The translations under genes and the position numbers were made by a program. Shown piece after piece: positions 3,571 through 48,477 of a stretch of DNA of 64,000 nucleotides; the first letter of the stretch is position 1; the number at the start of each line of letters is the position of its first letter. Under the pieces are notes generated by a model that was given only the letters and a program-made list of their open reading frames with translations, was not told where the DNA came from and searched no databases. This DNA is from an uncultured Gemmatimonadota bacterium (lineage in GTDB: Bacteria; JAAXHH01), in the NCBI GenBank assembly GCA_951812955.1, contig OX638340.1:1888001-1952000 (forward strand), read 5' to 3'.

Positions 3571-4254
3571 ATGAACCCAAGCCTGCGACAGAGCATGAAC
3601 GAGTATTACGATGAACGAGCGGCCGAGTTCGACGAGATCTACACACTGGGCAAGCCGCCTGGTACGGTCACAGATCCGGAGCTATACAAAAAAGAGGCCC
3701 GGTCGCTGGCGCATCTCGTCCGGGTACACTGTCGCGGCAGCATCCTCGATATTCCCTGCGGAACGGGCTACTGGCTTCAGTTCTACGCCGCAAACTGTTC
3801 GGCGATCACGCTCGTGGACCAGTCGGAGAACATGCTGCGGGAAGGAAGAGAAAAAGCGCGCAAGCATGGCGTCGAGCCAATCACCACGTTCGTGGAGGCC
3901 GATGCCCTTGAAGTGCCGTTGGAAGACCGGTCATTCGATACCGTCCTGGTGGGCTTCTTCCTCAGTCACGTCACGGATAGCCAGATTGCGCTGTTTTTCA
4001 ATACACTGCGAAACCTGCTGAAACCGGACGGCCGCATGCTCATCCTGGACTCCAACTGGACCCGCTACCGCGGATCACGGCCCAAGGAAGGGACCACGTT
4101 GCGTACGCTCAATGACGGACGTAAATTCGAGATCTACAAGCGGTACTTTGAAGGGACCGATTTCGACCGGATGTCGGAGACCTGCGGAATGGATTTCACC
4201 GTGCGGCACGACGGCAAGCTTTACCTCGGCGTCACAGGCACGCTGCGTGATTGA
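3571..4254 (+). CDS. class I SAM-dependent methyltransferase
   Basis: 227 aa. Motif I ILDIPCGTGYW, post-I acidic residue, motif II/III spacing. ATG preceded by GGAAAGAG RBS. Confidence 0.8.
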   Translation: MNPSLRQSMNEYYDERAAEFDEIYTLGKPPGTVTDPELYKKEARSLAHLVRVHCRGSILDIPCGTGYWLQFYAANCSAITLVDQSENMLREGREKARKHGVEPITTFVEADALEVPLEDRSFDTVLVGFFLSHVTDSQIALFFNTLRNLLKPDGRMLILDSNWTRYRGSRPKEGTTLRTLNDGRKFEIYKRYFEGTDFDRMSETCGMDFTVRHDGKLYLGVTGTLRD

Positions 4255-4262
4255 ATCAGATT

Positions 4263-4973
4263 ATGCGAATCAAGCCAGTACCTGAAAAGCTGAAACCGGA
4301 GAACCTGAATCGGGCAACCATCGCCTATTACAACCTGCGGCAGGTTCATGGCGACATGCCTCACAGGATCCCAAGGGGGCCCTCGCCTGATCTGCCTGAC
4401 GAACAAGCCAGGATGATCCGGGAATCTCGGGAGGCCATGCGGGGCCGAAGGGTACTCGAGGTAGCGAGCGGTACGGGATCGGCGTCCAGGGAAATCGCGG
4501 TGACCGCAGTGTCTGTCACGGGCGTGGAGATCGCTTCCAATATGTTGAGCATCGCTAAAGAAAGCGATAACCCGTCCAACGTAAGTTACCTGGCTGGCGA
4601 CGCATTCGACCTTGAATCCATAGCGTCAGGTGAGCGCTTCGACGGTGGATTCGCATCTGGGTTTATGCACACCTGTCCTTCCTCGAGGTATTTGGAATTC
4701 CTGGATGGTTTTCACGGGCGGCTCGAGAAGGGCTCTACCGTATTCATGCGGTCGTCCAGACCGACAAGTCCTGATGCGGTAAGCAGGCTTTTCCGGGTTG
4801 AAGGTCACGCGGACCAGTTCATGACACGGCAGTTGTCCGATGGCTCCGAATATGTCATGGTCGAGAACGATCCGACCGAAGACGAACTCAGGCGCATATT
4901 CGAACCCCTGTCGAAGAACCTCATGGTGCATATCGGAAACTACTGGTGGTGGATCAGGTACGAACTGCCCTGA
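4263..4973 (+). CDS. class I SAM-dependent methyltransferase (second, tandem)
   Basis: Motif VLEVASGTGSAS. ORF begins at a TTG at 4251 overlapping the upstream stop; first ATG is 4263. Confidence 0.65.
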   Translation: MRIKPVPEKLKPENLNRATIAYYNLRQVHGDMPHRIPRGPSPDLPDEQARMIRESREAMRGRRVLEVASGTGSASREIAVTAVSVTGVEIASNMLSIAKESDNPSNVSYLAGDAFDLESIASGERFDGGFASGFMHTCPSSRYLEFLDGFHGRLEKGSTVFMRSSRPTSPDAVSRLFRVEGHADQFMTRQLSDGSEYVMVENDPTEDELRRIFEPLSKNLMVHIGNYWWWIRYELP

Positions 4974-4982
4974 GGCGGCTTC

Positions 4983-5864
4983 ATGCATGAGATCGTGCAA
5001 CATGATCACGCGCAAGATCTCCTCACGCTTTCCGGACCCTGCCTGGAATCACGCGAGAGCGAGAACAACCTGCCTCTGGGCCTTGCGCATACGCTGGCCA
5101 GGGATCCCCGGTACTTCGGCGATGATCCACCACTGCTCCTGAGCATACTGGAAAACGGCATTCCCGTCGGCGTAGCGGTCAGGACGCCGCCGCGTAAAAT
5201 CGTCCTGAGCCGATTCGATGCCGAAATCGAAGCGGCCGTGAACCGGCTAGTCAAACACCTGCGCAGCAATCCAATGATGGTTCCCGGCATCGTCGGACCG
5301 GAACGGGAATCACAGTGTTTCGCGGACCGCTGGTCGGAAGCCATTCCCGGACTTGCCGCAACGATTTCCACTCGGTTGCGGGTATTCGAGGCGCGCAGAA
5401 TTGTCGACGTGCCTCTTGCGCCGGGCTGCCTGCGCCGGGCCGGGATGGAGGACCTTCCGTTAATGTCCGAGTGGATCGAGGGCTTCGCCCGGGAAGCGTT
5501 AGGAGAAAAATCCGATCCCGGCAAGGCGCTGGACAAAGCGGAGAAATACATTGAAGAAAGGAATCTGTTCGTCTGGGACCATGGGGGACCGGTATCGATT
5601 GCCAGGGAATCCCGGCCCATGAAGCACGGCACGGTGATCTCGCTGGTGTACACGCCACCGGAACGCCGCGATCGGGGCTACGCGACTTCGTGCGTATACC
5701 GGTTGACGAAGAAACTGCTTGCGGGACGGTATCAGTTCTGTAGCCTGTTTACCGATCTGGCGAATCCGACCTCCAACCACATCTATCCGAGGGTCGGTTA
5801 CGTACCCTTAGGCGATACTTTGGAATTCGATTTTGATCACGCGGCAGGACCTACCGAACGCTGA
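4983..5864 (+). CDS. GNAT-family acetyltransferase-like protein (two-lobed)
   Basis: 293 aa. C-terminal FCSLFTDLANPTSNHIYPRVGYVP resembles the GNAT motif A/B acetyl-CoA region. N-terminal half may be a degenerate second GNAT lobe. Confidence 0.5.
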   Translation: MHEIVQHDHAQDLLTLSGPCLESRESENNLPLGLAHTLARDPRYFGDDPPLLLSILENGIPVGVAVRTPPRKIVLSRFDAEIEAAVNRLVKHLRSNPMMVPGIVGPERESQCFADRWSEAIPGLAATISTRLRVFEARRIVDVPLAPGCLRRAGMEDLPLMSEWIEGFAREALGEKSDPGKALDKAEKYIEERNLFVWDHGGPVSIARESRPMKHGTVISLVYTPPERRDRGYATSCVYRLTKKLLAGRYQFCSLFTDLANPTSNHIYPRVGYVPLGDTLEFDFDHAAGPTER

Positions 5865-5950
5865 CCCTGTGCCTGCATCGCGCCATTTAGCGCCACAAAA
5901 CGAGCGTCTACCGCACGGCGAAGATCACTGAGTTCATAGGAGTACTGGTT

Positions 5951-6787
5951 ATGGGATATCAACTAAATGAGCAGCAACTCGCTTTCTTTGACACCTTCGG
6001 ATACCTGGGGTTTCCAGGTCTGCTTGATGATCGTATCGACGAGATCATCAACGACTTCGAGGAGGTCTGGGCAAGTCGCGGGGGCGGCCATCACGGGCGG
6101 CCCCATGACGGTAAGGAGCGCTCCTGTATTGTACCGTTCATTGACCAGCAAGAACGGCTTTCCAGCCTGCTGGACGACGACCGGATCAGGGGCATCGCGA
6201 CCAGTCTGTTGGGCGATGACTTCAACTATATGGGCAGCGATGGCAACTACTACGCTGGAGATACCCGGTGGCACTCCGATGGATGGCACCCTGAAACACT
6301 GCACATAAAGATCGCCTTTTACCTGGACGAATTAACACGGGACACCGGCTGTCTGCGGGTCATTCCCGGCAGCCACAAGCGGGATGACGCCTATGCGGAT
6401 TCACTGCAGCAGCATGTCGGAGAGAGTTCGTCCGTGTGGGATACGGACCCGCGGGATGTGCCTGCGATGGCGCTGGAGACCCGTCCGGGCGACATCGTCT
6501 GTTTCAATCACAATACCAAGCACGCCTCATTCGGCGGCGGCGGGCACCGGCGCATGTTTACCATGAACCTGTGTCAGCGCTATCCCGAGCATCGCCTCCA
6601 GGAACTGCGCGATTACATCAGCGGCGGAGCCCGTTTCTGGTTGGACGAAGCATACGGTGAGGCGATGATCCGCACCGCTACTCCGGATCGCAAGCGTCAC
6701 CTGGAGCAGGTCATGGCCAACGACGATCACTTGCCGGAGTTGAGCCGCCAGGCCAGGGAAAGCATGAGCGAACCGTCAAGGGGCTGA
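5951..6787 (+). CDS. phytanoyl-CoA dioxygenase (PhyH) family Fe(II)/2-oxoglutarate oxygenase
   Basis: 278 aa. WHSDG (HxD) and distal His (NHNTKHAS) facial-triad spacing typical of PhyH. Confidence 0.75.
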   Translation: MGYQLNEQQLAFFDTFGYLGFPGLLDDRIDEIINDFEEVWASRGGGHHGRPHDGKERSCIVPFIDQQERLSSLLDDDRIRGIATSLLGDDFNYMGSDGNYYAGDTRWHSDGWHPETLHIKIAFYLDELTRDTGCLRVIPGSHKRDDAYADSLQQHVGESSSVWDTDPRDVPAMALETRPGDIVCFNHNTKHASFGGGGHRRMFTMNLCQRYPEHRLQELRDYISGGARFWLDEAYGEAMIRTATPDRKRHLEQVMANDDHLPELSRQARESMSEPSRG

Positions 6788-6877: not shown

Positions 6878-7735
6878 TCAGGTCATCTTCCATTTCGTGT
6901 CGGGAATATCGCCGTGCTGGACGCGCCGCTCCAGTATGGGCGTCTGACGCAACTCGCGAATCAGTTCGATCAGGCCGTTGATGGCGGCCTCCAGGAACTT
7001 TTCTCCCTTCTCTTTCGTCGCTTTGGTGGCATCCCCCATGACCCCGCTGGGCGATATCGAACTCCAGTAGGGCACCATGCGGGCGTCGGATCCCTCGGGA
7101 TGCCCGCTGGCCAGGAGATCGGTCTTAAAACTGTTTGGCAGGGGACTCCTGTTGTCCACAGCCTTGTCCATTTCAACCAGATCGGGCTTGAGGGCAAGGT
7201 ATAGAGACGTCTCGTATTCCCCTCCATGAGACGTGCCGCCATAGTCCGAGTCGCGTAACGCCTTGCCCACCTCCCTTGCCTGCCTCAGTCCCCAGTGGTT
7301 GGCGCTGGCGCACAGTATCTTCCCTTCGAAATCGATGACGGTAAGGCGGGCGGCCAGGTCGAGGGGCGAGGTGTTGCTTCCGTGGCCGTTGATGATCAGG
7401 ATGCGCTTGAAGCCGTGATAGGCCAAACTGCTGCACACGTCCCGGACGTAGTTGATGAAGGTGTCCCACCGAATGGTGATCGTCCCGTGGAAATCCATGT
7501 GATGGGGACTGTAACCGTGGGTCACCGGAGGGGCGAGCACGACCTCCTCCGGTATGCGTGCCGCGGCCCGCCGGCAGATCTCCGTCGCCAGGACCACGTC
7601 CACGTCCACGGGCAGATGGGGACCGTGGTCCTCGTAGGTCGCCACCGGGAGGAGTGCGACCCGGTCCTGGGCGGCCGCGTCCCTTATCTCGTTCCAGATC
7701 ATCTCCGAGTAGTCGTACTTGACCGACGCCATCAA
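6878..7735 (-). CDS. creatininase-family amidohydrolase
   Basis: 285 aa. Hallmark EDHGPHLP and INGHGSN metal-binding motifs of the creatinine amidohydrolase family. Confidence 0.8.
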   Translation of the reverse strand: MMASVKYDYSEMIWNEIRDAAAQDRVALLPVATYEDHGPHLPVDVDVVLATEICRRAAARIPEEVVLAPPVTHGYSPHHMDFHGTITIRWDTFINYVRDVCSSLAYHGFKRILIINGHGSNTSPLDLAARLTVIDFEGKILCASANHWGLRQAREVGKALRDSDYGGTSHGGEYETSLYLALKPDLVEMDKAVDNRSPLPNSFKTDLLASGHPEGSDARMVPYWSSISPSGVMGDATKATKEKGEKFLEAAINGLIELIRELRQTPILERRVQHGDIPDTKWKMT

Positions 7736-7815
7736 GGCCTCCTTTTCACTGGTTCTTTCACCTTTACGGGTTCAGGTTATACTACCGTTACGCTTGCTTG
7801 TACATGCTTTTCATA

Positions 7816-9063
7816 TCAGATCAACTCCATGTATTTCAGCGACTTGCGGTATAGATCCAACGTCTCGTCGTATTGGGCGTGACGACCCTCGGCAACGATC
7901 TGTTTTCCCGCGACCGAGACGGATCTCACCGCCCGCGGCGTGGCGCCGAAGAGGATGGCGTCAGGAGCGTGATCGGGATCCATGGCAGCAATGGATGGAT
8001 CGTCGGGATCCAGGTGGACATGATCATCCCGCCAGGATTCATCCAGACCGCAGGCCGCGTATCCCAGTCTCGTAGCCGCGTCAAGCAGCACCTGCGCCTC
8101 AGCCACTGTATGCCGCTTCTCCAGCCGTGACCGCTCGTCCAGCTCCACGGCCCGGATTTCCTCGAAGGCGTTCTCGCATGAGTGGCTGTCCACGCCCACG
8201 CAGAGGTGGGTTCCGGCCCTGAGCAGCTCGGCCGCGGGCGGGAGCCCATCGCCGAGATCTCTTTCCGTGGTACGACAGATGCACACCATGCACTTGTAGT
8301 CTCCCAGCGCTTCGATTTCACCTTCATCGAGATGCGTGGCGTGCACGGCCACGAACCGCGGGGACAAGACACCTTCATTGGTAAGTAACGCGACGGGCGT
8401 GGTCCCGTATTCAGACCTGCATGCTGCAAGCTCGGCCCGTTGTTCGCAGACGTGCATGTGGTATGGAAGTTCATGTTCTTCGGCGTAGGCCGACAGAATG
8501 CGGATATCGGGGAGGGGCACGGCCCGAATGCTGTGGGCGGCCACGGCCACGGAGACGTCGGAATCATCCGCGTAGCGCGATCTCAGCACATCGAGATCCC
8601 TTAACACGTCATCGATCGACGGGTCGATGAACCGTTTCTGCGCCGGTACCGCGGACCGCCGGTAACCTGCTCTCAGGTAGGCGGTACGGATCAGGCAGAT
8701 ACGCAGGCCGACATCCCTGGCAGCACGCACGACTGCATCCGCCAGTTCGGTGCGGTCTGCATAGGGACGCCCCCCGGGACCATGATGCACGTAATGGAAC
8801 TCACCGACGGCCGTAACCCCGGACATCGCAAGTTCGGTATAGGCGAACCGCGCGATCGCGTACAGGTCATCCGGTCGGAGCCTTTCGACCAACCGGTACA
8901 TCTCGTCCCGCCAGCCCCAGAACGTGCCCGCGCGGGTCGCGCGGCGCTGGGTCCGCCCACGAAGCGCACGCTGGAAAGCGTGGGAATGGGCCGTAGCGAG
9001 ACCGGGCATGACCCAGTGGCCTTCTTCGTATTGAACGGAAGGCAGGTTATTCCCGGAATTCAT
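7816..9063 (-). CDS. hutF: formimidoylglutamate deiminase (HutF-like amidohydrolase)
   Basis: 415 aa. HSHAFQR and FHYVHH metal-ligand motifs. Start overlaps hutI stop by 4 nt. N-terminus ~35 aa shorter than classical HutF. Confidence 0.65.
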   Translation of the reverse strand: MNSGNNLPSVQYEEGHWVMPGLATAHSHAFQRALRGRTQRRATRAGTFWGWRDEMYRLVERLRPDDLYAIARFAYTELAMSGVTAVGEFHYVHHGPGGRPYADRTELADAVVRAARDVGLRICLIRTAYLRAGYRRSAVPAQKRFIDPSIDDVLRDLDVLRSRYADDSDVSVAVAAHSIRAVPLPDIRILSAYAEEHELPYHMHVCEQRAELAACRSEYGTTPVALLTNEGVLSPRFVAVHATHLDEGEIEALGDYKCMVCICRTTERDLGDGLPPAAELLRAGTHLCVGVDSHSCENAFEEIRAVELDERSRLEKRHTVAEAQVLLDAATRLGYAACGLDESWRDDHVHLDPDDPSIAAMDPDHAPDAILFGATPRAVRSVSVAGKQIVAEGRHAQYDETLDLYRKSLKYMELI

Positions 9064-10343
9064 GGGTTCAACACCTGCCCGTTCTTGATCACGGTATGCA
9101 CCGGGTTTCCGCCAAAGAAATAGGGTATGTGGCGGTAATCGGCCTCGTTCAGAATCAGTATATCGGCCCGCTTGCCGACTTCAATGGAACCGGTCCGGTC
9201 CCCCTGGCCGATGGCGAAAGCCGCGTTGATGGTGGATGCGTTCAGCGCTTCCGCGGGGGTGAACCGCTGGTACCTGCAGGCTATGGCCATGACCGTGGGC
9301 ATGGATGGACAGGGTGCCGAACCGGGATTGAGGTCGGTGGCGAGGGCTACGACGGCGCCGGCTTCCATCATTGCCCGCCCATCGGCGTAATCTGCCATAC
9401 CTAGGTTGAAGTTCACCGCCGGTAGCAGGACGGCGATCGTGTCCGAGCGGGCCAGCGATTCGATCGCCTCCCGGCCCGTCACATCGAGGTGGTCCACCGA
9501 GGCGGCGCCGAGTTCCATGGCCATGGCGACTCCGCCGAAATCGTTGAACTGGTCCACGTGCATCTTCGCTTTCAAACCGGCATCAATCCCGGCCTCCAGC
9601 ACCCGCCGGGACTGGGCGAGATCGAATGCGTGGTCTTCGCAGAACACGTCGACGTGCAAGGGAACTTCGCGATCCGAGAAGCGCGAGGACTGGTACCAGG
9701 CCGCCGCTTCCGGCAGGATCTTCTCGATCACGCACCGTGTATACGCTTCGGAATCTCCCTCGAATTCCGGTGGCACCGCGTGAGCGCCCAAAAAAGTGGG
9801 CACGATGTCGCAGGGATGGTCCCGGTCTAGCTGTTCGATGACACGCAGCATCTTCAGTTCGTCGGGAGCGCTCAGACCGTAACCGGTCTTGATCTCCACG
9901 GTCGTTGTGCCCAGTGCGAGCATCTCGTCGAGACGGGTGGAAGCGGACGATACGAGTTCGTCCACGGTTGCGGCCCGCGTGTACCGGACCGTATTCACAA
10001 TTCCCCCGCCTGCAGCCATGATCTCCAGGTAGGAAGCCCCCTTGATCCGCATCTCGAATTCCGCGGCGCGGGCTCCGCCGAAGACCGTGTGGGTGTGGGC
10101 GTCTACGAAACCGGGACAGAGGGATCTCCCACGGCAATCTATCGTGCGCTTGCCCGCGTACCTGCCATCCAGGTCCTCGGCCGGTCCGACCGCCGCGATC
10201 ACCCCGGCCTCTACCGCCACCGACCCGTGCTCGATCATGTGCACCGAGGCCATGTCCGAACCGCGCCGAGGTGTCCCGGGCGACCGTGGCGTGCAGGTCA
10301 CGACCTGATCCGCGTTGTGGAGGTAAAGATCGACGGGTTTCAT
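9060..10343 (-). CDS. hutI: imidazolonepropionase
   Basis: 427 aa. Amidohydrolase with DAHTH motif. Global similarity to HutI, in hut context. Confidence 0.85.
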   Translation of the reverse strand: MKPVDLYLHNADQVVTCTPRSPGTPRRGSDMASVHMIEHGSVAVEAGVIAAVGPAEDLDGRYAGKRTIDCRGRSLCPGFVDAHTHTVFGGARAAEFEMRIKGASYLEIMAAGGGIVNTVRYTRAATVDELVSSASTRLDEMLALGTTTVEIKTGYGLSAPDELKMLRVIEQLDRDHPCDIVPTFLGAHAVPPEFEGDSEAYTRCVIEKILPEAAAWYQSSRFSDREVPLHVDVFCEDHAFDLAQSRRVLEAGIDAGLKAKMHVDQFNDFGGVAMAMELGAASVDHLDVTGREAIESLARSDTIAVLLPAVNFNLGMADYADGRAMMEAGAVVALATDLNPGSAPCPSMPTVMAIACRYQRFTPAEALNASTINAAFAIGQGDRTGSIEVGKRADILILNEADYRHIPYFFGGNPVHTVIKNGQVLNP

Positions 10344-10459
10344 ATGCCCGCTCGATGAAAGATGGGTGGTCTTGTCGGTCTCGGAGGTTTCATTGCGGCG
10401 CCGGCGTTAAAATGTCAAAAGAAAGGGCCCGAAGCTCGTTGCCCAACTTGCGGTACGTC

Positions 10460-12049
10460 TCAGTCCAGCGTCGGACCCGGAATCTCCAACTTCTCCCCGA
10501 CCGCACCGACCACGTCCCCCCGTGCGACCAGACCACGCATGATTTCGATCAGCGGCGCAAGCGGTACGTCGCGGTCCAGGAAGGGCACGTGCCGGCGGAT
10601 CATTCGGTACGCCGCGCCGGTCCCCCGTCCCATTCCATCCGGCGTGACGCCCGGTTCCCGGCACCTGAAATCGATGGCCTGTGCCGCGTCAATCAGTTCT
10701 ATGGCAACGATGGTCTCTACGTTTTCCAGGACCTGTTGCGTATGATGCACCGACGCCGCACCCATGCTCACGTGATCTTCCGTATTCGCGCCGCTCGGTA
10801 TCGAGTCCGCGCTGGCCGGGTGGGCCAGCACCTTGTTCTCCGACGCAAGGGCCGCCGCCGTGTACTGGGTGAGCATCAACCCGCTTTCCAGTCCGCCATG
10901 GTCCGTGAGGAACATGGGCAGGATGCCGCCGTTGGAGTCGGCGTCTACGAGCCGGGCCGTACGCCGCTCGCTCATGTTGCCCATGTCTACGATCGACAGC
11001 TTCATGCTGTCCATCGCCACGGCGATGGGTTCGCCGTGGAAGTTGCCCGCGCTGATGATCTCCGTGTCTTCGGGATCATCCCCGGCGAAGACCAGGGGAT
11101 TGTCGTTCGCGGAGTTCAGCTCGATGTTGATCATCCAGCGGGCGTAATCGATCGTGTCCCGGACCGCTCCGTGCACCTGGGGGACGCAGCGCAACGTGTA
11201 GGGATCCTGTACGTTGCCGGGATCGTCGGAACGGAGCAAACGGCTGCCGTGCAGCATGTCCCTCAGGAAGGCCGCGCAGGCGACCTGCCTGGGATGGGGA
11301 CGGATGGCGTGCACGCGGGCGTCGTACGCACGGTCGGTGCCGATCAGCGCTTCCAGGGTCATGGCGGCCGCGATGTCCGCCGTAAGCGCGAGATTTGTGG
11401 CCCGGTGTACCAGCAGGGCGCCGAGTCCCGCCATGAGGGTCGTGCCGTTTGTGAGGGCCAACCCCTCCTTCGCCCCCAGGATAACCGGTTCAAGCCCCGC
11501 CTTCCGGAGGGCCGTTGCGCCGTCGAGACGGCGGGAACGGTACATGGCCTCACCTTCTCCGATCAGCACCAGGGACATGTGCGCCAGGGTCGCCAGGTCT
11601 CCACTTGCGCCAAGGGAACCCCGGCCGGGGATGCAGGGGTGCACGCCCTCGTTGAGCATGTCCACCATCAGCTGGACGACTTCGGGCCGGATGCCCGAAT
11701 AGCCCATGGCGAGCGTATTGGCCCGGACGATCAGCATGGCGCGTACGGTCTCCTCGTCCAGTTCGGGCCCTGCACCGGCCGCGTGGCTTCTTATCAGATT
11801 GAGTTGCAATTCGGCGACCTGTTCGGAAGAGATCAGCTTGTCCTTGAATCGGCCGAAACCGGTGGTGATCCCGTAGGCGATCCGGCCCTCCGAGACCAAT
11901 CGATCCACCACTTCCCGGGAGCGTTTCATGCCGGGGAGGGCATCGGGGTGTATTGCGACGGGGCGGCCCTTCGAGACGGCGACCACCTCGTCGATGGTGA
12001 GATTGTAACCCGTGAGAGGCAGGACATCCTGGGAACGATCCATATCCAA
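10460..12049 (-). CDS. hutH: histidine ammonia-lyase
   Basis: 529 aa. ASG tripeptide (GASGDLATLAHM) that forms the MIO cofactor. Aromatic-amino-acid-lyase fold. Confidence 0.9.
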   Translation of the reverse strand: MDMDRSQDVLPLTGYNLTIDEVVAVSKGRPVAIHPDALPGMKRSREVVDRLVSEGRIAYGITTGFGRFKDKLISSEQVAELQLNLIRSHAAGAGPELDEETVRAMLIVRANTLAMGYSGIRPEVVQLMVDMLNEGVHPCIPGRGSLGASGDLATLAHMSLVLIGEGEAMYRSRRLDGATALRKAGLEPVILGAKEGLALTNGTTLMAGLGALLVHRATNLALTADIAAAMTLEALIGTDRAYDARVHAIRPHPRQVACAAFLRDMLHGSRLLRSDDPGNVQDPYTLRCVPQVHGAVRDTIDYARWMINIELNSANDNPLVFAGDDPEDTEIISAGNFHGEPIAVAMDSMKLSIVDMGNMSERRTARLVDADSNGGILPMFLTDHGGLESGLMLTQYTAAALASENKVLAHPASADSIPSGANTEDHVSMGAASVHHTQQVLENVETIVAIELIDAAQAIDFRCREPGVTPDGMGRGTGAAYRMIRRHVPFLDRDVPLAPLIEIMRGLVARGDVVGAVGEKLEIPGPTLD

Positions 12050-12065
12050 CCGATTCCTTCCGGGT

Positions 12066-13715
12066 TCAGTCCATCATGGGGATCTTCACGCCACGGGCTT
12101 TCGCAACTGCCTCGGCCTCTTCGTAACCGGCGTCGACGTGCCGGGCCACGCCCATGCCCGGATCGTTGGTGAGCACACGCTCCAGGCGCGCGGCCGCCTC
12201 CGGTGTGCCGTCGGCGACGATGACCTGTCCGGCGTGCAGGCTGTATCCGATGCCCACGCCGCCGCCGTGATGGTAACTCACCCAGGTGGCTCCGCTGGCC
12301 GTATTGATGAGCGCGTTCAGCACGGGCCAGTCCGCGATGGCGTCCGACCCGTCTTTCATGGCCTCGGTTTCGCGGTTCGGGCTGGCGACGGACCCGCTGT
12401 CCAGGTGATCCCGGCCGATGACGATGGGCACACTGATCTCGCCCGAGGCAACCAGTTCGTTGAATTTGAGCCCGGCCCTGGCCCGCTCCCCGTAACCCAG
12501 CCAGCAGATTCGGGCCGGCAGCCCCTGGAATTCCACGTGCCGCCGGGCCATCGTGATCCAGCGGAACAGGTGGTCGTCCTCGGGAAACAGTTCGAGGACG
12601 GCCTGGTCCGTCCGGTAGATATCCTCGGGATCCCCCGAGAGGGCGACCCAGCGAAAGGGCCCCCTGCCTTCGCAGAACAGGGGCCGGATGTAGGCCGGCA
12701 CGAAACCGGGATAGTCGAAGGCCTCTTTCAGCCCGTTGTCGTATGCGCGTTGCCGGAGGTTGTTGCCGTAGTCGAAAACCACGGCCCCTCGCTTCTGCCA
12801 TTCGAGCAGGGTCCGTACGTGCACAGTCATGGATGCGATCGAGCGTTCCTGGTATGCGTCCGGATCGCGGTCGCGCAGCATTGCCGCCTCGTCAGGCGAC
12901 AGACCTGCGGGTATATAACCGTATAGCGGATCGTGGGCCGCGGTCTGATCGGTAACTACGTCGGGCGCCAATCCCCGGTCCAGCAGTTCGGGAAGTACCT
13001 CCGCGGCGTTACCGATCAGGGCGATCGACCGGGCTTCACCCGCGCTGAGTGCCTCGTTCACCCAGGTCAGCGCCAGGTCGAGGTTTTCCGCCACGGTATC
13101 CACCTGGCGCAGTTCGAGGCGCCGCCGCGCCCGCCGGGGATCCACCTCCACCAGCAGGCCCACGCCGCCGTTCATGGTGATGGCCAGCGCCTGGGCGCCG
13201 CCCATCTCTCCCAGGCCGGCCGTGACTACGAGCTTTCCCGCCAGGCTGCCCCATCCTTGCTTGCGGGCCAGCGCGCCGAAGGTCTCGTAGGTGCCCTGCA
13301 GGATGCCCTGCGTTCCGATGTATATCCAGCTTCCGGCCGTCATCTGGCCGTACATGATCAGGCCTTCGCGCTCCCAGGTATCGAAGTGCTCCTGTGTGGC
13401 CCAGGCCGGTACCATGTTGGAGTTTGCGATCAGAACGCGCGGCGCGTCTGCATGGGTGCGAAAAACCGCCACGGGTTTGCCCGACTGCACCATGAGGGTT
13501 TCGTCGGGTTCCAGGTCGCGCAGGGCGCGCAGTATGGCGTCGAAGGCTTCCCAGTTCCGGGCGGCCTTTCCCCTGCCGCCATACACGACAAGGTTGTCAG
13601 GATCGAAAGCGACCAGGGGGTCCAGGTTGTTCTGGATCATGCGGTAGGCCGCTTCGATGAGCCAGTTCTTACAACTCAGCTTCGTCCCCGTGGGGGCTTT
13701 CACGTTTCGTTTCAC
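12066..13715 (-). CDS. hutU: urocanate hydratase
   Basis: 549 aa. Full-length urocanase similarity, including the NAD-binding glycine-rich region. Confidence 0.9.
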
Positions 13716-13808
13716 ACCTGAACTTACGCGTTCCTTTCACGGTTCTTCCACTCTTCGTGGGCTAAACCTGAACTTACGCGTTCCTTTCACGGTTCTTCCA
13801 CTCTTCGT
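13716..13808. repeat. perfect 43-bp tandem direct duplication (period 50 bp) at the RraA-like/hutU junction
   Basis: ACCTGAACTTACGCGTTCCTTTCACGGTTCTTCCACTCTTCGT at 13716-13758 and 13766-13808. The second copy encodes the last 10 codons plus stop of the RraA-like gene. Confidence 0.9.
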
Positions 13809-14448
13809 AGATGAAATCTGGGCTGGTGATCATGTCGAAATGGGACCGCTCCCAGGTCCTGATTTCCCCCGCCTTTCTCAGCGTGTCTGCCGCGATGTCG
13901 AGGGGGATCTTCACCACGCCGTCGACGTCGGCGAGCAACAGGTCGCCGGTCTGAACCAGCAACTGGCCGGCGACGAGGGGACGGCCGACTGCCCGCACGT
14001 TGAAGGGACCGTGGCCCGATACCGTGCCGATGCCCCATATGGGCAGTCCCGCCCCCCGGATTCCCTCGAGATCGCGCACGCAGCCTTCGACAACGGCGCC
14101 CACCACGCCGAGCTTTCGGTGGATATGCGCCATGCCGTCACCGAAAAGGGCGGCACGCTTTGGGCGGGTGTCGACGTCCTTCATCACCGCGATCTTGGGA
14201 CCCGGTGTCTCGTTGAGCACGTCGTAGTAGTCGGACCAGTTCATGTTGGGGGGAGTGGGGTCCAGCGGCGTGACCTCGGAAGTCACGGCATACCCGACCA
14301 CGGTGCCGAATTCGGGCGTCAGGTACTGTATCTCCGGTCCGGTGTAATCGTCATTGGAAACGCCCTGTACTTTTTCTACGGCGTTGTATACCGTGGCCGA
14401 GTCGAATTCGGCCAGTCCGGTCAATACGGCGTTGTCCACGCGGGTCAT
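13774..14448 (-). CDS. RraA-like / 4-hydroxy-4-methyl-2-oxoglutarate aldolase-family protein
   Basis: 224 aa. RraA/demethylmenaquinone-methyltransferase-like fold signature (GDxxxA...GxxVxG pattern). AAGGAG RBS 8 nt upstream. Confidence 0.6.
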   Translation of the reverse strand: MTRVDNAVLTGLAEFDSATVYNAVEKVQGVSNDDYTGPEIQYLTPEFGTVVGYAVTSEVTPLDPTPPNMNWSDYYDVLNETPGPKIAVMKDVDTRPKRAALFGDGMAHIHRKLGVVGAVVEGCVRDLEGIRGAGLPIWGIGTVSGHGPFNVRAVGRPLVAGQLLVQTGDLLLADVDGVVKIPLDIAADTLRKAGEIRTWERSHFDMITSPDFIYEEWKNRERNA

Positions 14449-14677: not shown

Positions 14678-14701
14678 TTGACACAGGCACGTACTTGTGT
14701 C
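14678..14701 (+). promoter_or_regulatory. 22-bp near-palindrome GACACAGGCAC|GTACTTGTGTC overlapping a TTGACA -35-like hexamer upstream of the DUF2911-like gene
   Basis: Dyad symmetry 9/11 per half-site, 70-90 bp upstream of the ATG at 14770. Confidence 0.3.
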
Positions 14702-14769
14702 ATTTTCTCCTGGCAAAGCCAACTTCAATGGCGTGTCAGAACAAGAACCGTATTCAGGAGGTTTTTTTT

Positions 14770-15330
14770 ATGCTTCGCATTACCCGTTTATTCAGTGTAC
14801 TGGCGCTTTCCGCGGCTTTCGTGGCCATGGGTAGCGGCGCCGTCGACGCTCAGACGACCATGCCTTCGGGCGAAGACAGTGCGGACATGGGCCGTGGCAT
14901 GGTGGAAGTATCGTTGATGGGCGGCAAGGTGTCCATCGACTACGGCCGTCCGGAAATGAAGGGCCGGGATATGCTGGCCATGGCGCCTGATGGATTCGTC
15001 TGGCGCTTCGGCAGCAACAAATCCACCACCTTCACTACGGAAGCCGATCTTATGTTCGGCGACCAGTCGCTGGCCAAGGGTTCCTACAGCGCGTGGATCA
15101 AGCACGTCGAAGGCGATTCCTGGACGCTCATTTTCAATAGCGAAGTGGGGATCTGGGGCGCACCCGGCGCCAGTCGGGAGAACGACGTGCTGGAAGTACC
15201 GCTGACCTACACCGTGGAAGATGAGATGGTCGAACGGCTCACCGTGAGACTCATGGTCATGGAAGACAAGGGTTTCGTGGGAGTCGGGTGGGGTACCCAC
15301 CGCCTGATTGTCAGTTTCTCGGCCAAGTAG
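14770..15330 (+). CDS. secreted DUF2911-like protein
   Basis: AGGAGG RBS at 14754-14759. Sec signal MLRITRLFSVLALSAAFVAMGSGAVDAQ. WRFGSNKSTT motif recalled from DUF2911. The upstream extension to 14695 lacks an RBS. Confidence 0.45.
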   Translation: MLRITRLFSVLALSAAFVAMGSGAVDAQTTMPSGEDSADMGRGMVEVSLMGGKVSIDYGRPEMKGRDMLAMAPDGFVWRFGSNKSTTFTTEADLMFGDQSLAKGSYSAWIKHVEGDSWTLIFNSEVGIWGAPGASRENDVLEVPLTYTVEDEMVERLTVRLMVMEDKGFVGVGWGTHRLIVSFSAK

Positions 15331-15360: not shown

Positions 15361-15396
15361 AAAGGGACAGGTGCAATTCGCCTGTCCCTTTTCTTT
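15361..15396. terminator. bidirectional rho-independent terminator between convergent genes
   Basis: Perfect 11-bp stem AAAGGGACAGG / CCTGTCCCTTT with a 9-nt loop. T-runs follow on both strands. Confidence 0.6.
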
Positions 15397-16453
15397 ACCA
15401 GTTTTCAGGATTCAAGCCGACGCGGATTCCCGCTTCTTCGATCTGCCGCCAGGTGGTATCGTCGATGCTGATCCCTTCACGGCGCCGTTCCTCCGCCAGC
15501 CTGAATTCCGGTTCTCCCGGAACGAGAATCTCTTCGAATCCCGGCGCGGTCCGGCTGGATTTCACGTGCCGGATCAATCCCTCGATCTCCTGGTAGTACC
15601 AGTCCAGGTCCGAGAAGAACGAAATATCGAAGACGGTGAAGAGCACGCCGTTGCTTTCCACGATCTGTTCGCCCTGCGCGCAACCCTGTCCGCTCAGCGC
15701 ACCGCCCAGGACCTCCACCATCAAACCCAGGCTGTAACCCTTATGGGCGACGATTCCGCCCATGGGCAGGATGGCGCCGTTGGGGGGCGGTCCCTTGATG
15801 ACCGTGGGATCCGTGGTGGAGTTGCCTTCGTGGTCGATCAACCATCCTTCCGGAACCCGCACCCCCTTGTTCGCGGCGACCCGGACCTTCCCTTCGGCGA
15901 CGACGGAGGTAGTCAGGTCCACCATGATGGGATCGGCGTCTCGACGGGGCGCCGAAAAGGCGATTGGGTTGGTGCTGATTCGTCCGTCGATACCGCCAAA
16001 AGGCGGAATCTGGCGTCCGAAGCGGCCCGCGTTGACGAAGGCCAGCCCGATCAGACCTTCCCGGGCCGCCATGAGGGGATAGGCGCCTACGCGGCCCACG
16101 TGGCTCGTACGCCGGAGCGTAACCGTGGCCGTGCCGTGCTTACGTGCTTTCTTCATGGCGAGCCGCATGGCGATGGTGCCGCCAACCTGGCCGAGGGCGC
16201 CGCCGTTGTCCACCAGGGCCGTGCAGGGACTTTCTCTCACGATGCCCACGTCGGCCCGGGCCTTGAATCGTCCCTCGTCCATAATGGCCTTGACGTACTC
16301 CGGTATCCGAATGGCGCCGTGGGAATCATGGCCGAAGAGATTCGAGTCCACGAGGTGGTCCACGACGCTGCGGGCATCGTCCTCGGTACAGCCGGCCGCT
16401 TCCAGCACCTCGCAACCGATGCGATGGAGTTTATCGGGGGTAATTACGGGCAT
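15395..16453 (-). CDS. Ldh_2 family (malate/L-lactate/sulfolactate/ureidoglycolate dehydrogenase-like) NAD(P)H oxidoreductase
   Basis: 352 aa. Global match to the Ldh_2 fold (HDSHG, GGxxAxHKG motifs). Confidence 0.8.
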   Translation of the reverse strand: MPVITPDKLHRIGCEVLEAAGCTEDDARSVVDHLVDSNLFGHDSHGAIRIPEYVKAIMDEGRFKARADVGIVRESPCTALVDNGGALGQVGGTIAMRLAMKKARKHGTATVTLRRTSHVGRVGAYPLMAAREGLIGLAFVNAGRFGRQIPPFGGIDGRISTNPIAFSAPRRDADPIMVDLTTSVVAEGKVRVAANKGVRVPEGWLIDHEGNSTTDPTVIKGPPPNGAILPMGGIVAHKGYSLGLMVEVLGGALSGQGCAQGEQIVESNGVLFTVFDISFFSDLDWYYQEIEGLIRHVKSSRTAPGFEEILVPGEPEFRLAEERRREGISIDDTTWRQIEEAGIRVGLNPENW

Positions 16454-16535
16454 TGTCTTCCTTTCCAGGTCTTACGTGTGTACCGACTCTTCAAACGCGC
16501 GATCTGCAACCCGCGGGCGAATGAAACCGGTCGGG

Positions 16536-17570
16536 TCAGGTTCTGTATTTCTCCAGTTTCTTCTGTAATCCCGGCCGTTCGAGCACAGCCCTGTTCACCA
16601 CGTAGGGCGGCTCTTCGCCCCTGGAGACGGCCAGGGCCGCCTTGACGCAGTCGTGGCCGATATCACGAAACAGCTCATGGGTCCAGCACGACGCGTGGGG
16701 CGCCAGGATGACATTCGGGAGCGTGAGCAGCTCATCATCGGGATCGGGCGGCTCCCGTTCGAAGACATCGATGGCCGCGCCCTTGATCCAACCGTCCCGC
16801 AGGGCCCGGGTCAGCGCTTCCTGGTCGACGATCGCGCCACGGGCCGTGTTGACCAGGAAGGCGTCCTCCCTCATGAGGCGCAGTTCCCGCGCGCCGATCA
16901 GGTGCCGGGTGTGTTCGTTCAACGGGCAGTGGATGGTCACGAACGTGCTGCGCCGCAACAGGGTCTCACGGTCCACCAGTACAACGCCCAGTTGCGCGGC
17001 CTCTTCCGCGGACACCGCCGGATCGCTGATGAGGACTTCGGACGGCTCGAAGGGCGCCAGCATGCGCACCACCTCGCGGCCGATCATGCCCATGCCAATC
17101 AGGCCGACCACGCGGCCGCGGATCTCGCATCCCATGTGATCGAACCGGACACCCCAGTCGTCATTCCGTACGATGGCGTCCTTAATCGTCACCCGGTGGC
17201 AGAGTCCGAGCATCAGGGCCATCGTGGCGCTGGCCACGGGCCTCCGGGTGGCCTCCGGAGTGATGGTAATCATGACGTCCGCGTCTGTCGCCGCAGCGAG
17301 ATCGATCATGTCGTAGCCCACGCCGGTTCGCGCGATGAGCGCCAGGCGTTCGACGCCCGCGAAGCTTTCACGCGTGTAGGCCTGTCCCATGGATACGACC
17401 ACGTCGAAGTCTGAAAGCTGATCCGGGGTGACGGGACTCCGGTCTTCGGCAAGGTACGCGTGAGAGACTCCGGCCTTGTCCAGCAGGTCGACTCCGAAAT
17501 CGTCGAACACGACCCCGCCGTCTGGACCCAGCAGGTCGGCGACCAGGGCTACGCGGAATTCATCGGTCAT
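16536..17570 (-). CDS. D-isomer-specific 2-hydroxyacid dehydrogenase (NAD-binding)
   Basis: 344 aa. GLIGMGMIGREV Rossmann motif. Catalytic R/E/H pattern of D-2-HADH. Confidence 0.85.
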   Translation of the reverse strand: MTDEFRVALVADLLGPDGGVVFDDFGVDLLDKAGVSHAYLAEDRSPVTPDQLSDFDVVVSMGQAYTRESFAGVERLALIARTGVGYDMIDLAAATDADVMITITPEATRRPVASATMALMLGLCHRVTIKDAIVRNDDWGVRFDHMGCEIRGRVVGLIGMGMIGREVVRMLAPFEPSEVLISDPAVSAEEAAQLGVVLVDRETLLRRSTFVTIHCPLNEHTRHLIGARELRLMREDAFLVNTARGAIVDQEALTRALRDGWIKGAAIDVFEREPPDPDDELLTLPNVILAPHASCWTHELFRDIGHDCVKAALAVSRGEEPPYVVNRAVLERPGLQKKLEKYRT

Positions 17571-17598
17571 ATAATGTGTTCCAGGATTGCGGTGCGTG

Positions 17599-19656
17599 TC
17601 AGAACAGGATCTGGGACGTCGACTTGGCGATCAAGACCAGGGAGACGGCCGCCATGCCGATCAGCCCAAGGCCGCACCCGTACCCGGCGAGGATCACCGG
17701 CGCGTAGGCGCGCCATCGTTTCTCTCCGTAGCGCCGTCCGAAATAGAACCTTCCCAGCATGGCGCCGATGAACGTGGGCAGCGTGTAGTGAATCCACGCG
17801 CCCGTGCCCAGTCCGGCCACCAGGCCGTAGAAAAGCAGCGGCGGCGCTTTGAGCAGGCTCAGCACCCCGTACAGCGCGAACGTGAACCCCATTCCGGCGC
17901 CGATATACTCCCAGCGGATCAGTTGCCCGATCACGTCTGAGCCGCCCGGCAGGGTAGACTTGATCCAGATCGTCTCCATCGTGGCCTGCAGCGGCCACAT
18001 CTTCTCGACGAAAGGATAGGCCGCGGACGGTATGGGCGCCAGTTTCCAGATCAGGGCGTAGAACACGAAACTGAATACGATAAGCAGTATCAGGCTCAAT
18101 ATATAGAGTTTGACCAGGCTTGGAAATCGCGTTCGGGTGAGTTCCAGCTGCCGGAAAGTCGCCACGACGCCGCTGTGATCGAAGAGGGGAACCGGGGCGA
18201 ACCAGATCGCCACCCCCTTGTAGCCCGACAGGTAGAAGGACCCCTCTCTGGCGTAGGGGAAGGATGACCCGTAGGGAGAGCCCGTCAAACCTATCATGCG
18301 GGCGCCGATGTAGGAGAAAAAAGGCGTCCACAGAAACCCGAACACCACGGAGATCCACACGGGAAACGCCGGTTCAAGGTAGTAGACCAGGGCAATAAAG
18401 CACAGGGTCGAAACCACCCAGAGCGCGATGGGGATGGGCAGCCTGAAATCACCCCTTTCCGGCGGCGGTTTGCGGGGGCCCTGCCCGCCGGACGCCCCAT
18501 CCGGGTCTCTCCTCAACGCGCGGGCGAAGGCGACCAGGCCGATCAGGCCGATGACCAGCGAAGTGCCGATGGAAGAAAAACTCAGCCAGAAGTCGATGGT
18601 GTTGTTGATGGAGGTGGGTATGGTGCTCATCCCCGGCGTCCAACTGTGCAACAGGCCGAAGTGGTAGAGGAGCGGATTGGCAATAAAGGTGATGACGAAG
18701 GAACTGATGAAGGTGCCGACCACGATCCAGAAGGGCAGGACGAATCCCACCAGGAGGGTGGCCATGTCCGTTCCGATGCCGATGGGCGACGCGGGCAGCA
18801 CGTCCCGGAACCGCGGCGTGAAGTCCGCGAAGGGAATGGGGAAGACCTCCACACCCTTGGTCAGCACCACGCCGGAAATGGTGGGGACGACGACATATAA
18901 TATGCCCCAGCCCAGTCCGATCATGGCGCCGACGGTGAACATTCGCCATCGCCAGGTCTCTTCCCCCGCCGACGATTCGGCCAGGGCGGTAGCGCCGGCC
19001 GCCTGCACGGGCGCCAGGGGGAAGGGCAGGCGTTCGGTGTCGGCCGTAATCCGGAAGAGCACGTATCCCAGGGAGAGCGCGTTGACCAGGCCGAGGATGG
19101 ACACGAGGACGGCCAGGAGAATGGGCTCCAGCCACTCCATGGAGAAGAGGGTCCGGGTGATCAACGAATCGGCACCCCGGGGCGGGGAAACCCACTGTGG
19201 AAGAAGCTGGGCCAGGCCGTCCGCCTGGGGAGACTGGATCAGGTACTGGAACCAGATCATCTTGGCGAAGGGCGCGCCGTGCACCGACGACCCGGCCGCC
19301 ATACCGCTGGCGCCCAGTCCCGTGGCCGCAAGCCCGGCGGCAAGCCAGTAGAGGATGATGGCTTCCTGAGGCTTGAGCTTTATAAACAGGCGCTTGCCGA
19401 TCTCGATGAACATGATGATGGTGACCCATTCCGCGGCGCCCGCGAAACTCTTGCCCGTCACCAGTTCCAGGTAGATCGCGCCGGGGAGCATGACCAGCCC
19501 CACGAAGAAGGCGGCCCAGATGATGCGGCTGCTGAACCCGTCCTCGTAGGGCAGGTTGTCCGGAACGATCTGCCACCGGTCATCCTGTTCGGCTCCGGTG
19601 GGAATCGCTTCCCGATCCCGCTGTTCGTGCTGCTCGCGTCTGTTTTCGTCGCTCAT
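17599..19656 (-). CDS. polytopic integral membrane protein, uncharacterised family (paralog 1 of 3)
   Basis: 685 aa, at least 14 predicted TM helices. Shares ERLPFPLAP and aromatic-rich loop motifs with ORFs 25513-27615 and 34391-36388. Confidence 0.7.
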   Translation of the reverse strand: MSDENRREQHEQRDREAIPTGAEQDDRWQIVPDNLPYEDGFSSRIIWAAFFVGLVMLPGAIYLELVTGKSFAGAAEWVTIIMFIEIGKRLFIKLKPQEAIILYWLAAGLAATGLGASGMAAGSSVHGAPFAKMIWFQYLIQSPQADGLAQLLPQWVSPPRGADSLITRTLFSMEWLEPILLAVLVSILGLVNALSLGYVLFRITADTERLPFPLAPVQAAGATALAESSAGEETWRWRMFTVGAMIGLGWGILYVVVPTISGVVLTKGVEVFPIPFADFTPRFRDVLPASPIGIGTDMATLLVGFVLPFWIVVGTFISSFVITFIANPLLYHFGLLHSWTPGMSTIPTSINNTIDFWLSFSSIGTSLVIGLIGLVAFARALRRDPDGASGGQGPRKPPPERGDFRLPIPIALWVVSTLCFIALVYYLEPAFPVWISVVFGFLWTPFFSYIGARMIGLTGSPYGSSFPYAREGSFYLSGYKGVAIWFAPVPLFDHSGVVATFRQLELTRTRFPSLVKLYILSLILLIVFSFVFYALIWKLAPIPSAAYPFVEKMWPLQATMETIWIKSTLPGGSDVIGQLIRWEYIGAGMGFTFALYGVLSLLKAPPLLFYGLVAGLGTGAWIHYTLPTFIGAMLGRFYFGRRYGEKRWRAYAPVILAGYGCGLGLIGMAAVSLVLIAKSTSQILF

Positions 19657-19756
19657 GGATTACACTCGGCCCCGGCCCGGTACCTACCTATTCGCTCTTC
19701 CAATCTTCACTCCCCGATCACTGCTTATAATGCGCCATACGCGCCCATTCTCCCGC

Positions 19757-20914: not shown

Positions 20915-20924
20915 CGCTGCTCCT

Positions 20925-27507: not shown

Positions 27508-27729
27508 GGAAAGGGCCGGATTGTGATACTTGCGGTGACTGAAATACGGTAATGAATCTAGTCTGCGGGTCCAGAATATGTAAAATGGCAGACGGTATAA
27601 GTCAAAGAAAAACAAAGTTCCATGAGGTCCTGAGCCACCATCGGCCAGACCTTTTCGTTGTTGACACGATTCCGGTTTGCGGGGATATTTCCATACCTTG
27701 ATGTACCCGTTTCATACGAGGGATTTACA

Positions 27730-47637: not shown

Positions 47638-48477
47638 ATGATTCTCGAATCGCTCAAAGCGGCTCTGGAAAAATCGGATCGGCAAAAACTTGCGCTGGTG
47701 GGGATCCCCGACGACGCCAATTCCACTTTCCTCCGTGGCGCGGCCGAAGCGCCTCCGAAGATCCGTGCGCAACTCTTCTCCGATGCCTTCAACATGTGGA
47801 CTGAGACGGGTGTCGATCTCGGCGAGGACGTTTTACTCGACGCGGGCGACCTGGACCTGGGCGAGGTCCCCGATGCCTGGGCCGCGATCCAGCACGCCGT
47901 CGAAGCGGTGCTCGATCATGGGCTCACACCCATCTGCCTCGGCGGTGACCACGCCATAACCTGGCCGATCGTTAAGGGGTTCCGGCGCAAGTACGACACG
48001 CTCAGCATCCTTCACTTCGATGCGCACCCTGATCTCTACGACAATTTCGGGGACAACCCCCGCTCCCATGCGTCTCCCTTCGCTCGGATTATGGAAAACC
48101 ACCTGGCGGACCGGCTCGTCCAGGTGGGTATCCGCACCGCAAATGGCCATCAGCGGAAGCAGGCCAGACGGTTTGGGGTCGAGATGATCGAGATGCGGGA
48201 GTTGACCGGGGATCTAAGTCTGGCATTCGACTCGCCCGTCTATATATCGGTGGACGTCGATGGTCTGGATCCGGCGTACGCGCCAGGCGTCTCTCATCCC
48301 GAGCCCGGCGGCCTTTCCCCGCGGCAGGTGATCGACACGATTCAGCGTTTGGACGGCAGAATCGTCGGGGCGGATATCGTCGAGGTCAATCCGCGGAGGG
48401 ATTTCCACGATCTGACGGCGGTCGTCGCGGCTAAGATCGTGAAGGAAGTCGCCGCAAAGATGCTGGTGCATGCATAG
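47638..48477 (+). CDS. arginase/agmatinase/formiminoglutamase-family ureohydrolase
   Basis: 279 aa. Mn-binding motifs GGDHAIT, HFDAHPD, SVDVDGLDP. Confidence 0.85.
   Translation: MILESLKAALEKSDRQKLALVGIPDDANSTFLRGAAEAPPKIRAQLFSDAFNMWTETGVDLGEDVLLDAGDLDLGEVPDAWAAIQHAVEAVLDHGLTPICLGGDHAITWPIVKGFRRKYDTLSILHFDAHPDLYDNFGDNPRSHASPFARIMENHLADRLVQVGIRTANGHQRKQARRFGVEMIEMRELTGDLSLAFDSPVYISVDVDGLDPAYAPGVSHPEPGGLSPRQVIDTIQRLDGRIVGADIVEVNPRRDFHDLTAVVAAKIVKEVAAKMLVHA

Follow-up and report, generated by a model that had tools for sequence, protein, structure and literature searches.

A HutF-type histidine-utilization cassette within an RraA-like/creatininase-like operon of an uncultured Gemmatimonadota bacterium, probably placed there by a single relocation

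The DNA analyzed in the present work is a stretch of 64,000 nucleotides (nt) from an uncultured Gemmatimonadota bacterium (contig OX638340.1 of assembly GCA_951812955.1), which is referred to below as the window, and the system of interest is a run of six genes read in the same direction on the minus strand between positions 6878 and 14448: an RraA-like gene, hutU, hutH, hutI, hutF and a gene of the creatininase family. Gene identities were assigned from Pfam and NCBIfam profile scores, with the bit score of a protein compared to the cutoff of the corresponding equivalog model (Table 1). HutH, HutU, HutI and HutF all score above their equivalog thresholds, and on these genes the locus is a member of the HutF type of histidine-utilization (hut) operon. 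The initial annotation of this DNA, made from the sequence alone, described a tightly packed hutU-hutH-hutI-hutF run with a 4-nt overlap between hutI and hutF, headed by an RraA-like gene that is unusual for hut loci and followed by a co-directional creatininase-family gene. The positions and strand of these genes were verified, as was the overlap, an ATGA at 9063-9060 which is common to the hutI stop and the hutF start; the gap between hutU and hutH is ~16 nt and that between hutH and hutI is 116 nt. The head gene does belong to PF03737, although it scores below all of the NCBIfam equivalog cutoffs, and it matches the solved structures PDB 3NOJ and 3K4I. The gene that follows hutF is a full-length member of PF02633; it closes the operon and converges on a PhyH gene. 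Catabolism of thiourocanate or ergothioneine, rather than histidine, was considered and rejected on the score of HutU, which exceeds the hutU cutoff by a wide margin and does not reach either of the thiourocanate hydratase cutoffs. No riboswitch or other RNA element was found between 6 and 16 kb of the window, and hutC/hutD regulators and transporters were likewise not seen in either the operon or the window as a whole. The locus is an ordinary HutF-type histidine-breakdown cassette in an unusual, lineage-specific position.

By family membership, the four hut enzymes are predicted to convert histidine to urocanate (HutH), urocanate to imidazolonepropionate (HutU), imidazolonepropionate to N-formiminoglutamate (HutI), and N-formiminoglutamate to N-formyl-L-glutamate (HutF), with the release of two ammonia. 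The chemistry of these steps is that of the established five-step pathway of Pseudomonas, which comprises HutH, HutU, HutI, HutF and a HutG of the FGase family (COG3741/PF05013). The first four of these enzymes are common to Pseudomonas and the present locus, but the locus differs from the Pseudomonas system in that an FGase-type hutG is missing from operon and window alike, its HutF is shorter by ~30-35 residues, and the cassette is set between the RraA-like and creatininase-family genes.

The lack of an FGase gene beside the HutF route had already been pointed out in the initial annotation, which proposed on this basis that the creatininase-family protein might be a non-orthologous N-formylglutamate deformylase. 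The observation itself stands. In a Pfam scan of the open reading frames (ORFs) of the window that are at least 100 amino acids (aa) long, three small ones being left out, neither an N-formylglutamate amidohydrolase of the FGase family nor an M20 deacylase was found, and a tblastn search with the HutG of Caballeronia gave no match in the window or in 100 loci. The arginase-family gene of the window was tried as a HutG (formiminoglutamase) and rejected, as it scores below the hutG cutoff and above the agmatinase cutoff (Table 1). Only the COG0010 and COG3741 types of HutG are given in a comparative study of HutC regulons (PMC5343134), and a literature search returned no paper that links creatininase-family proteins to N-formylglutamate, hutF or RraA.

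HutF covers positions 49-442 of the 451 positions of the NF006681 model and aligns, from its own residue 15, with residues 45-439 of the HutF of P. aeruginosa (3MDU, PA5106), in agreement with the earlier remark that it lacks ~35 N-terminal residues relative to classical HutF. The HSHAFQRA, HxHxxEQ, VHATH and DSH motifs line up with those of 3MDU, so that the catalytic motifs are all present. The shortfall of ~30-35 residues is genuine, because the ORF is maximal and the DNA upstream of it is occupied by hutI to the end of the hutI model; a frameshift or an alternative start that would restore the long N-terminus was rejected for the same reasons. The short N-terminus is a trait of the whole subfamily, with most of the best 120 HutF matches, from Gemmatimonadota to Chloroflexota, being 405-420 aa long. 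The U-H-I-F gene order also occurs in an unrelated context (p450-hutUHIF-Gfo/Idh) that has neither RraA nor the creatininase-family hydrolase, and at five short-HutF loci outside the clade of the window neither the creatininase-family gene nor an FGase gene is found nearby. Two further hutF loci are of separate interest. On a near-identical metagenome contig (L010, 5912-7078) hutF is apparently disrupted, with only the first ~220 codons matching and small ORFs following, which reflects either a pseudogene or an assembly error. On an Azospirillum plasmid (L092, NZ_CP029832.1, 7840-11413) an annotated formimidoylglutamate deiminase gene lies between agmatinase and ArgE-type (M20) deacetylase genes with the other hut genes absent, and this locus may represent the pathway of a different guanidino or formimino compound, or an M20-type deformylase.

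The creatininase-family protein matches positions 2-238 of the 238 positions of the PF02633 model with 243 bits against 31, and is thus a clear member of the family, but it falls below all four of the curated equivalogs within PF02633: creatininase (TIGR04448, 128 against 235 bits), MftE (127 against 172), IolN (NF041098, 96 against 245) and ArfB (NF033501, 26 against 180). Its best solved homologue is the creatininase CrnA of Pseudomonas putida (PDB 1J2T, 3A6x), at E=1e-28 and ~30% identity. The two proteins have in common the fold family, the metal ligands (E34, H36, D45, H117 and E174, which align with E34, H36, D45, H120 and E183 of the P. putida enzyme) and the catalytic histidine (H169, aligned with H178). 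They differ at the residues of the P. putida enzyme which we take to be those of creatinine binding and catalysis, namely Ser78, Tyr121, Glu122, Asp155 and Trp174: Tyr121 is replaced by Gly, Glu122 by Ser and Asp155 by Gly, whereas the alignment has deletions at Ser78 and Trp174. The protein is therefore predicted to be an intact binuclear-metal hydrolase and not a true creatininase, because it lies below the TIGR04448 cutoff and the presumed substrate contacts have been replaced or deleted.

Comparison with other characterized systems does not assign the protein to any of them. The initial annotation was correct that the creatininase family includes a formamide hydrolase, the archaeal ArfB, and ArfB does show that the fold can carry out the chemistry proposed there; however, the locus protein matches the ArfB model over only 90 residues, and the substrate of ArfB is a pyrimidine nucleotide rather than an amino acid. 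IolN, the 3-dehydro-scyllo-inosose hydrolase, is a member of the same family, but no inositol genes were identified at the locus, and no mft or iol genes were seen among the neighbours in the examined loci. IolN opens a ring by hydrolysis in the inositol pathway of Thermotoga, where its partners are dehydrogenases of the Gfo/Idh/MocA type and keto-acid enzymes, and these partners resemble the neighbours seen in relatives of the present locus. The head gene is of the same family (PF03737) as the RraA-like HMG/CHA aldolase/oxaloacetate decarboxylases (LigK/PcmE; PDB 3NOJ) and matches 3NOJ, but with 51 bits where the cutoff is 304 and 61 bits where it is 179 it falls far short of the LigK models, and the other genes of a meta-cleavage pathway are absent.

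Orthologues of the creatininase-family protein at 67-98% identity were found in ~150 surveyed loci from at least six phyla, and conservation is tight, with more than 120 clusters at 68-95% identity. A scan of species-representative genomes returned 593 relatives, of which the best 80 (73-95% identical) were taken with 10 kb on each side and searched with the proteins of the window; these 80 are metagenome-assembled genomes (MAGs) labelled Gemmatimonadota, Latescibacterota, Poribacteria, Acidobacteriota, Planctomycetota, Zixiibacteriota and others, many of them from sponges or seawater. The layout of the window (RraA, hutU, hutH, hutI, hutF, hydrolase) is present in 12 of the 80 species (L012-L023), whose hydrolases are 87-95% identical to that of the window, while the remaining 68, with orthologues at 73-84% identity, have no hut gene within 10 kb. 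Metagenome contigs were also scanned, at the level of a DNA pattern, for the invariant motif HGYSPHHMDFHGT; 64 contigs matched, many of them short, and 2 of the 64 are linked to hut genes and 62 are not. Linkage to hutF was found in only one monophyletic clade and is absent from the five other short-HutF loci; no recurrent, independent linkage was seen among the loci surveyed.

The neighbour that does recur is RraA. RraA orthologues at 60-74% identity adjoin or lie near the hydrolase gene without hut genes at L001, L024, L025, L026 and L101: the orthologue is directly upstream of the hydrolase at L024 (74% identical) and L026 (62%), and at L025 (60%) a Gfo/Idh/MocA gene stands between the two. 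Another ~19 species have, just downstream of the hydrolase, a gene from a second RraA-like subfamily (27-29% identical; its membership of PF03737 was confirmed). An RraA-family gene lies within ~1.5 kb of the hydrolase in 34 of the 80 species, in two gene orders and with two RraA subfamilies. Neighbours other than RraA are wholly different between phyla. Close to the window, relatives with orthologues at 79-84% identity retain the flanks of the window, and all of the relatives listed next, hut-linked or hut-free, keep the upstream block of genes for an M28/FtsX protein, an amidohydrolase, a ~680-aa protein, a 2-hydroxyacid dehydrogenase (2-Hacid_dh) and an Ldh_2 dehydrogenase. Relatives at 94-95% identity (L008/L009) have the order 2-Hacid_dh, Ldh_2, DUF2911 (on the opposite strand), RraA, hutUHIF, hydrolase; a hut-free relative at 84% (L001) has 2-Hacid_dh, Ldh_2, RraA, hydrolase; a relative at 83% (L101) has the same four genes with a HAD IIA hydrolase gene directly downstream; and in a relative at 80% (the P0013 contig) RraA and the hydrolase are separated by a Gfo/Idh/MocA gene. 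Orthology of the Gfo/Idh/MocA gene beside hutF in L095 with that between RraA and the hydrolase in L025 was considered and rejected, as the two give no significant cross-match. Among plasmids of cultured organisms the best homologue is only 48% identical and lies in a haloarchaeal ArgE/DapE-creatininase-like-CoA transferase cluster, which is uninformative as to hut. In that cluster, on a Natronorubrum plasmid (L169, NZ_CP045489.1, 3004-12173), the creatininase-like gene is accompanied by genes for an ArgE/DapE deacylase, two CoA-transferase proteins and an aminotransferase, with a PotD/F-type ABC transporter and an Xaa-Pro peptidase (creatinase fold) nearby.

The direction of change was taken from a neighbour-joining tree of the hydrolase (262 ungapped columns, 500 bootstraps), which was rooted with the other context groups. 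Phylogenetic placement of the protein had been suggested in the initial annotation as a check on the proposed deformylase, and the outcome is unfavourable to that proposal: the hut-linked copies form a single derived clade in 96% of the bootstraps, nested within successive hut-free lineages that are linked to RraA (support of 68, 85 and 84%). Because of this nesting, one gain of hutUHIF is a more parsimonious account than its precise loss on three or more occasions, and the RraA-like gene is the putative ancestral neighbour of the creatininase-family gene. The hut-linked proteins carry only four clade-specific substitutions (R7D, C49A, V114I and V144A), which are mild and largely common to the nearest hut-free relatives, and no active-site change or sign of a new specificity was seen among them. 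The GC content of the hut genes and its third-codon-position counterpart (GC3) equal those of the neighbouring and upstream genes. Composition thus gives no support to a recent foreign origin of the cassette and is in keeping with a relocation that is old or took place within the lineage. Direct-repeat scars of an insertion were also looked for around the cassette, and only a 50-nt tandem duplication at the RraA end, specific to the window, was found: the 3' end of the RraA-like gene has been copied directly upstream of the hutU start (Table 1), whereas in relatives the RraA-hutU gap is only ~8-20 nt and the duplication is absent. The repeat and the DNA just before the hydrolase are faintly alike, a similarity that is not kept in relatives.

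The explanation that best accommodates these results, to which we assign a probability of roughly 0.6, is that hutUHIF was relocated once into an RraA-like/creatininase-like operon, that the hydrolase retains whatever function it has in its hut-free orthologues, and that the deformylase is encoded elsewhere. The U-H-I-F unit beside a P450 gene also speaks for it, as does the MAG CAYYIS01, in which hutI-hutF and RraA..hydrolase lie on different contigs. Under this explanation the four-gene cassette would have been inserted in the ancestor of one marine and sponge-associated clade (MAGs labelled Gemmatimonadetes or Latescibacterota), in the slot between the RraA-like and creatininase-like genes, which before then were a conserved pair in a block of 2-hydroxyacid dehydrogenase, Ldh_2, RraA-like and creatininase-like genes. 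The event would have been a within-lineage relocation of hut genes into a permissive slot of a pre-existing operon. The six genes probably share one promoter upstream of the RraA-like gene, judging from the short gaps, the presence of ribosome-binding sites and the missing terminators. The role of the hydrolase would be tied to the RraA-like aldolase/decarboxylases rather than to histidine, and N-formylglutamate would be deformylated by an enzyme encoded elsewhere in the genome. The creatininase-family hydrolase is thus probably not the missing last enzyme of the pathway.

Several results weigh against this explanation and in favour of the original proposal, in which the creatininase-family protein would act as a non-orthologous N-formylglutamate deformylase and complete the HutF route to glutamate and formate; the activity would either belong to all of the orthologues or be a promiscuous one that is exploited in this clade. 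The hydrolase is very likely co-transcribed with hutF in this clade, because the spacers are short (19-135 nt in relatives, always with GGAG(G) ribosome-binding sites) and no terminator-like hairpin is present, and it is therefore likely to be co-expressed with a pathway that is short of exactly one hydrolytic step. The arrangement has been kept in at least 12 species; the window and the 20-kb loci of relatives yielded no FGase, M20 or HutG; and in none of the six short-HutF lineages, this clade included, does an FGase gene lie nearby, which makes a non-canonical deformylase plausible in the short-HutF phyla. The metal ligands are intact, the family does hold the formamide hydrolase ArfB, one related MAG of the hut-free grade (CAYYIS01) has both hutI-hutF (HutF 68% identical) and RraA..hydrolase, on separate contigs, and the tree that places the hut-linked clade is a single-gene neighbour-joining tree. 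What stood of the proposal is the co-directional and probably co-transcribed arrangement and the lack of an FGase gene in the window; what did not is the functional weight of the adjacency, which arose as a single evolutionary event. The great majority of the orthologues have no hut linkage and are instead partnered by RraA-like genes where a partner is conserved, no sign of altered specificity was seen in the hut-linked proteins, and the five other short-HutF loci are without a nearby hydrolase gene. A deformylase role for the whole group would predict that linkage to hut genes recurs from phylum to phylum, as it usually does for hutG, and none was seen. A 3.2-Mb contig of another lineage with hutUHIF has no HGYSPHHMDFHGT match while two other contigs of the same metagenome do, although this point is weak, since an exact motif was needed and the presence of the contig in the scanned collection is presumed. 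On balance the deformylase reading is unlikely, and the same low standing is given to its broader form, in which the protein would be a third non-orthologous "HutG" serving the short HutF of Gemmatimonadota, Latescibacterota, Chloroflexota and their relatives, mostly unlinked to hut genes, and the hut genes happened to move beside it here.

Two further explanations concern the hydrolase apart from histidine. A small catabolic module, with the hut genes as passengers, could be formed by the RraA-like and creatininase-like genes, the genes for the 2-hydroxyacid and Ldh_2 dehydrogenases and, in relatives, Gfo/Idh/MocA and HAD phosphatase genes. Speculatively, the hydrolase would open a ring or an amide, either cleaving a C-C bond of a cyclic diketone as IolN does or opening a lactam as creatininase does; the product, a 4-hydroxy-2-oxo acid or a compound of the oxaloacetate type, would then be cleaved or decarboxylated by the RraA-like enzyme. 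The recurrence of RraA beside the hydrolase in two orders and two subfamilies, the synteny of the block with the glyoxylate-reductase-like and Ldh_2 genes, the Gfo/Idh/MocA genes in the RraA/hydrolase slot (L025 and the P0013 contig), the HAD IIA gene of L101 and the score against the IolN model are all consistent with such a module. However, no substrate can be named for it, the creatininase, MftE and IolN models score alike and all below their cutoffs, the other neighbours change wholly from phylum to phylum, and the Gfo/Idh/MocA adjacency may be due to chance because such genes are very abundant in these phyla; the module is accordingly a doubtful possibility, if a slightly better one than the deformylase. 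The explanation that the protein is a true creatinine amidohydrolase, by which sponge-associated and marine bacteria feed on creatinine of the host independently of hut, draws on the name carried by the source annotation and on CrnA being the best solved homologue. It is highly improbable given the shortfall against TIGR04448 and the loss of the presumed creatinine contacts described above, and no creatinase or sarcosine oxidase gene was found nearby in the examined loci.

The useful outcome of the analysis is a negative one, the operon itself being one of normal histidine catabolism. As the adjacency of hutF and the hydrolase appears to stem from a single rearrangement, it should not be spread as a functional annotation. 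The pair that is strongly conserved, at 73% identity or more across phyla, is that of the creatininase-like and RraA-like genes. Studies of sponge symbionts routinely label the creatininase-like gene "creatinine amidohydrolase", yet the tests for that enzyme fail here.

Table 1. Coordinates, strand and supporting evidence for features of the window (profile scores in bits, given against the equivalog cutoff where there is one).
Feature	Position	Strand	Evidence or remark
RraA-like gene (aldolase/decarboxylase family)	13774-14448	-	PF03737, 77 bits; first gene of the operon
hutU, urocanate hydratase	12066-13715	-	TIGR01228, 932 vs 375; three urocanase Pfam domains
hutH, histidine ammonia-lyase	10460-12049	-	TIGR01225, 623 vs 539; PF00221
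hutI, imidazolonepropionase	9060-10343	-	TIGR01224, 454 vs 298; model matched to its last position
hutF, formimidoylglutamate deiminase, short-N-terminus subfamily, 415 aa	7816-9063	-	NF006681, 468 vs 362
Spacer from hutF to creatininase-like gene	7733-7815	-	GGAGG ribosome-binding site; terminator-like hairpin absent
Creatininase-family binuclear-metal hydrolase (predicted)	6878-7732 (ORF to 7735; likely ATG at 7732)	-	PF02633, 243 bits
Tandem duplication, 2 x 50 nt, 92% identity	13716-13815		3' end of RraA-like gene (last codons and stop) copied directly upstream of hutU start
DUF2911 gene	14695-15330	+	PF11138, 100 bits; between Ldh_2 and RraA-like genes
Upstream co-directional block	15395-25511	-	Order as in hut-free L001/L002, L101-L103 and P0013 contig
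Ldh_2 dehydrogenase	15395-16453	-	
2-hydroxyacid dehydrogenase (glyoxylate-reductase-like)	16536-17570	-	
685-aa protein	17599-19656	-	No Pfam match
Amidohydrolase/deacetylase	19757-20914	-	Just below equivalog cutoff, 367 vs 371
M28 peptidase/PA/MacB-FtsX fusion, 1528 aa	20925-25511	-	
Agmatinase (arginase family)	47638-48477	+	TIGR01230, 191 vs 174; hutG TIGR01227, 142 vs 229

The remainder of the window contains several other groups of genes. The upstream block is conserved across relatives with or without hut genes, and it is separated from the hut-containing operon by the DUF2911 gene, which is also present in L008/L009 and L101 and is absent from L001. On the other side of the operon, convergent with the hydrolase, lie genes for two S-adenosylmethionine-dependent (SAM) methyltransferases, a GNAT/FR47 acetyltransferase, a PhyH-family dioxygenase and a class-V aminotransferase (3571-6787 on the plus strand and 1835-3289 on the minus strand), a set which is kept in the hut-linked clade in variable order. 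Paralogous DUF6785/DUF6784 proteins of 700 and 665 aa are encoded at 25513-27615 and 34391-36388, and flank genes for an MMPL transporter, a BshC-like protein (bacillithiol biosynthesis), a GT4 glycosyltransferase and a rhodanese. The region 48721-54143 holds a tandem pair of genes for aldehyde:ferredoxin-oxidoreductase-like proteins of 629 and 690 aa, in which only the N-terminal ~220 model positions match, and an adjoining gene for a PadH-like NADH-dependent flavin oxidoreductase; the agmatinase gene lies just upstream of them. The end of the window (56961-63767) is likely a mobile or defence island, and carries genes for a DUF4143 AAA ATPase, a D12-class adenine methyltransferase with a NotI-family restriction endonuclease, and an rve-family integrase/transposase, followed by last ORFs that have no Pfam match and a GC content of 0.46-0.48, compared to ~0.6 elsewhere.

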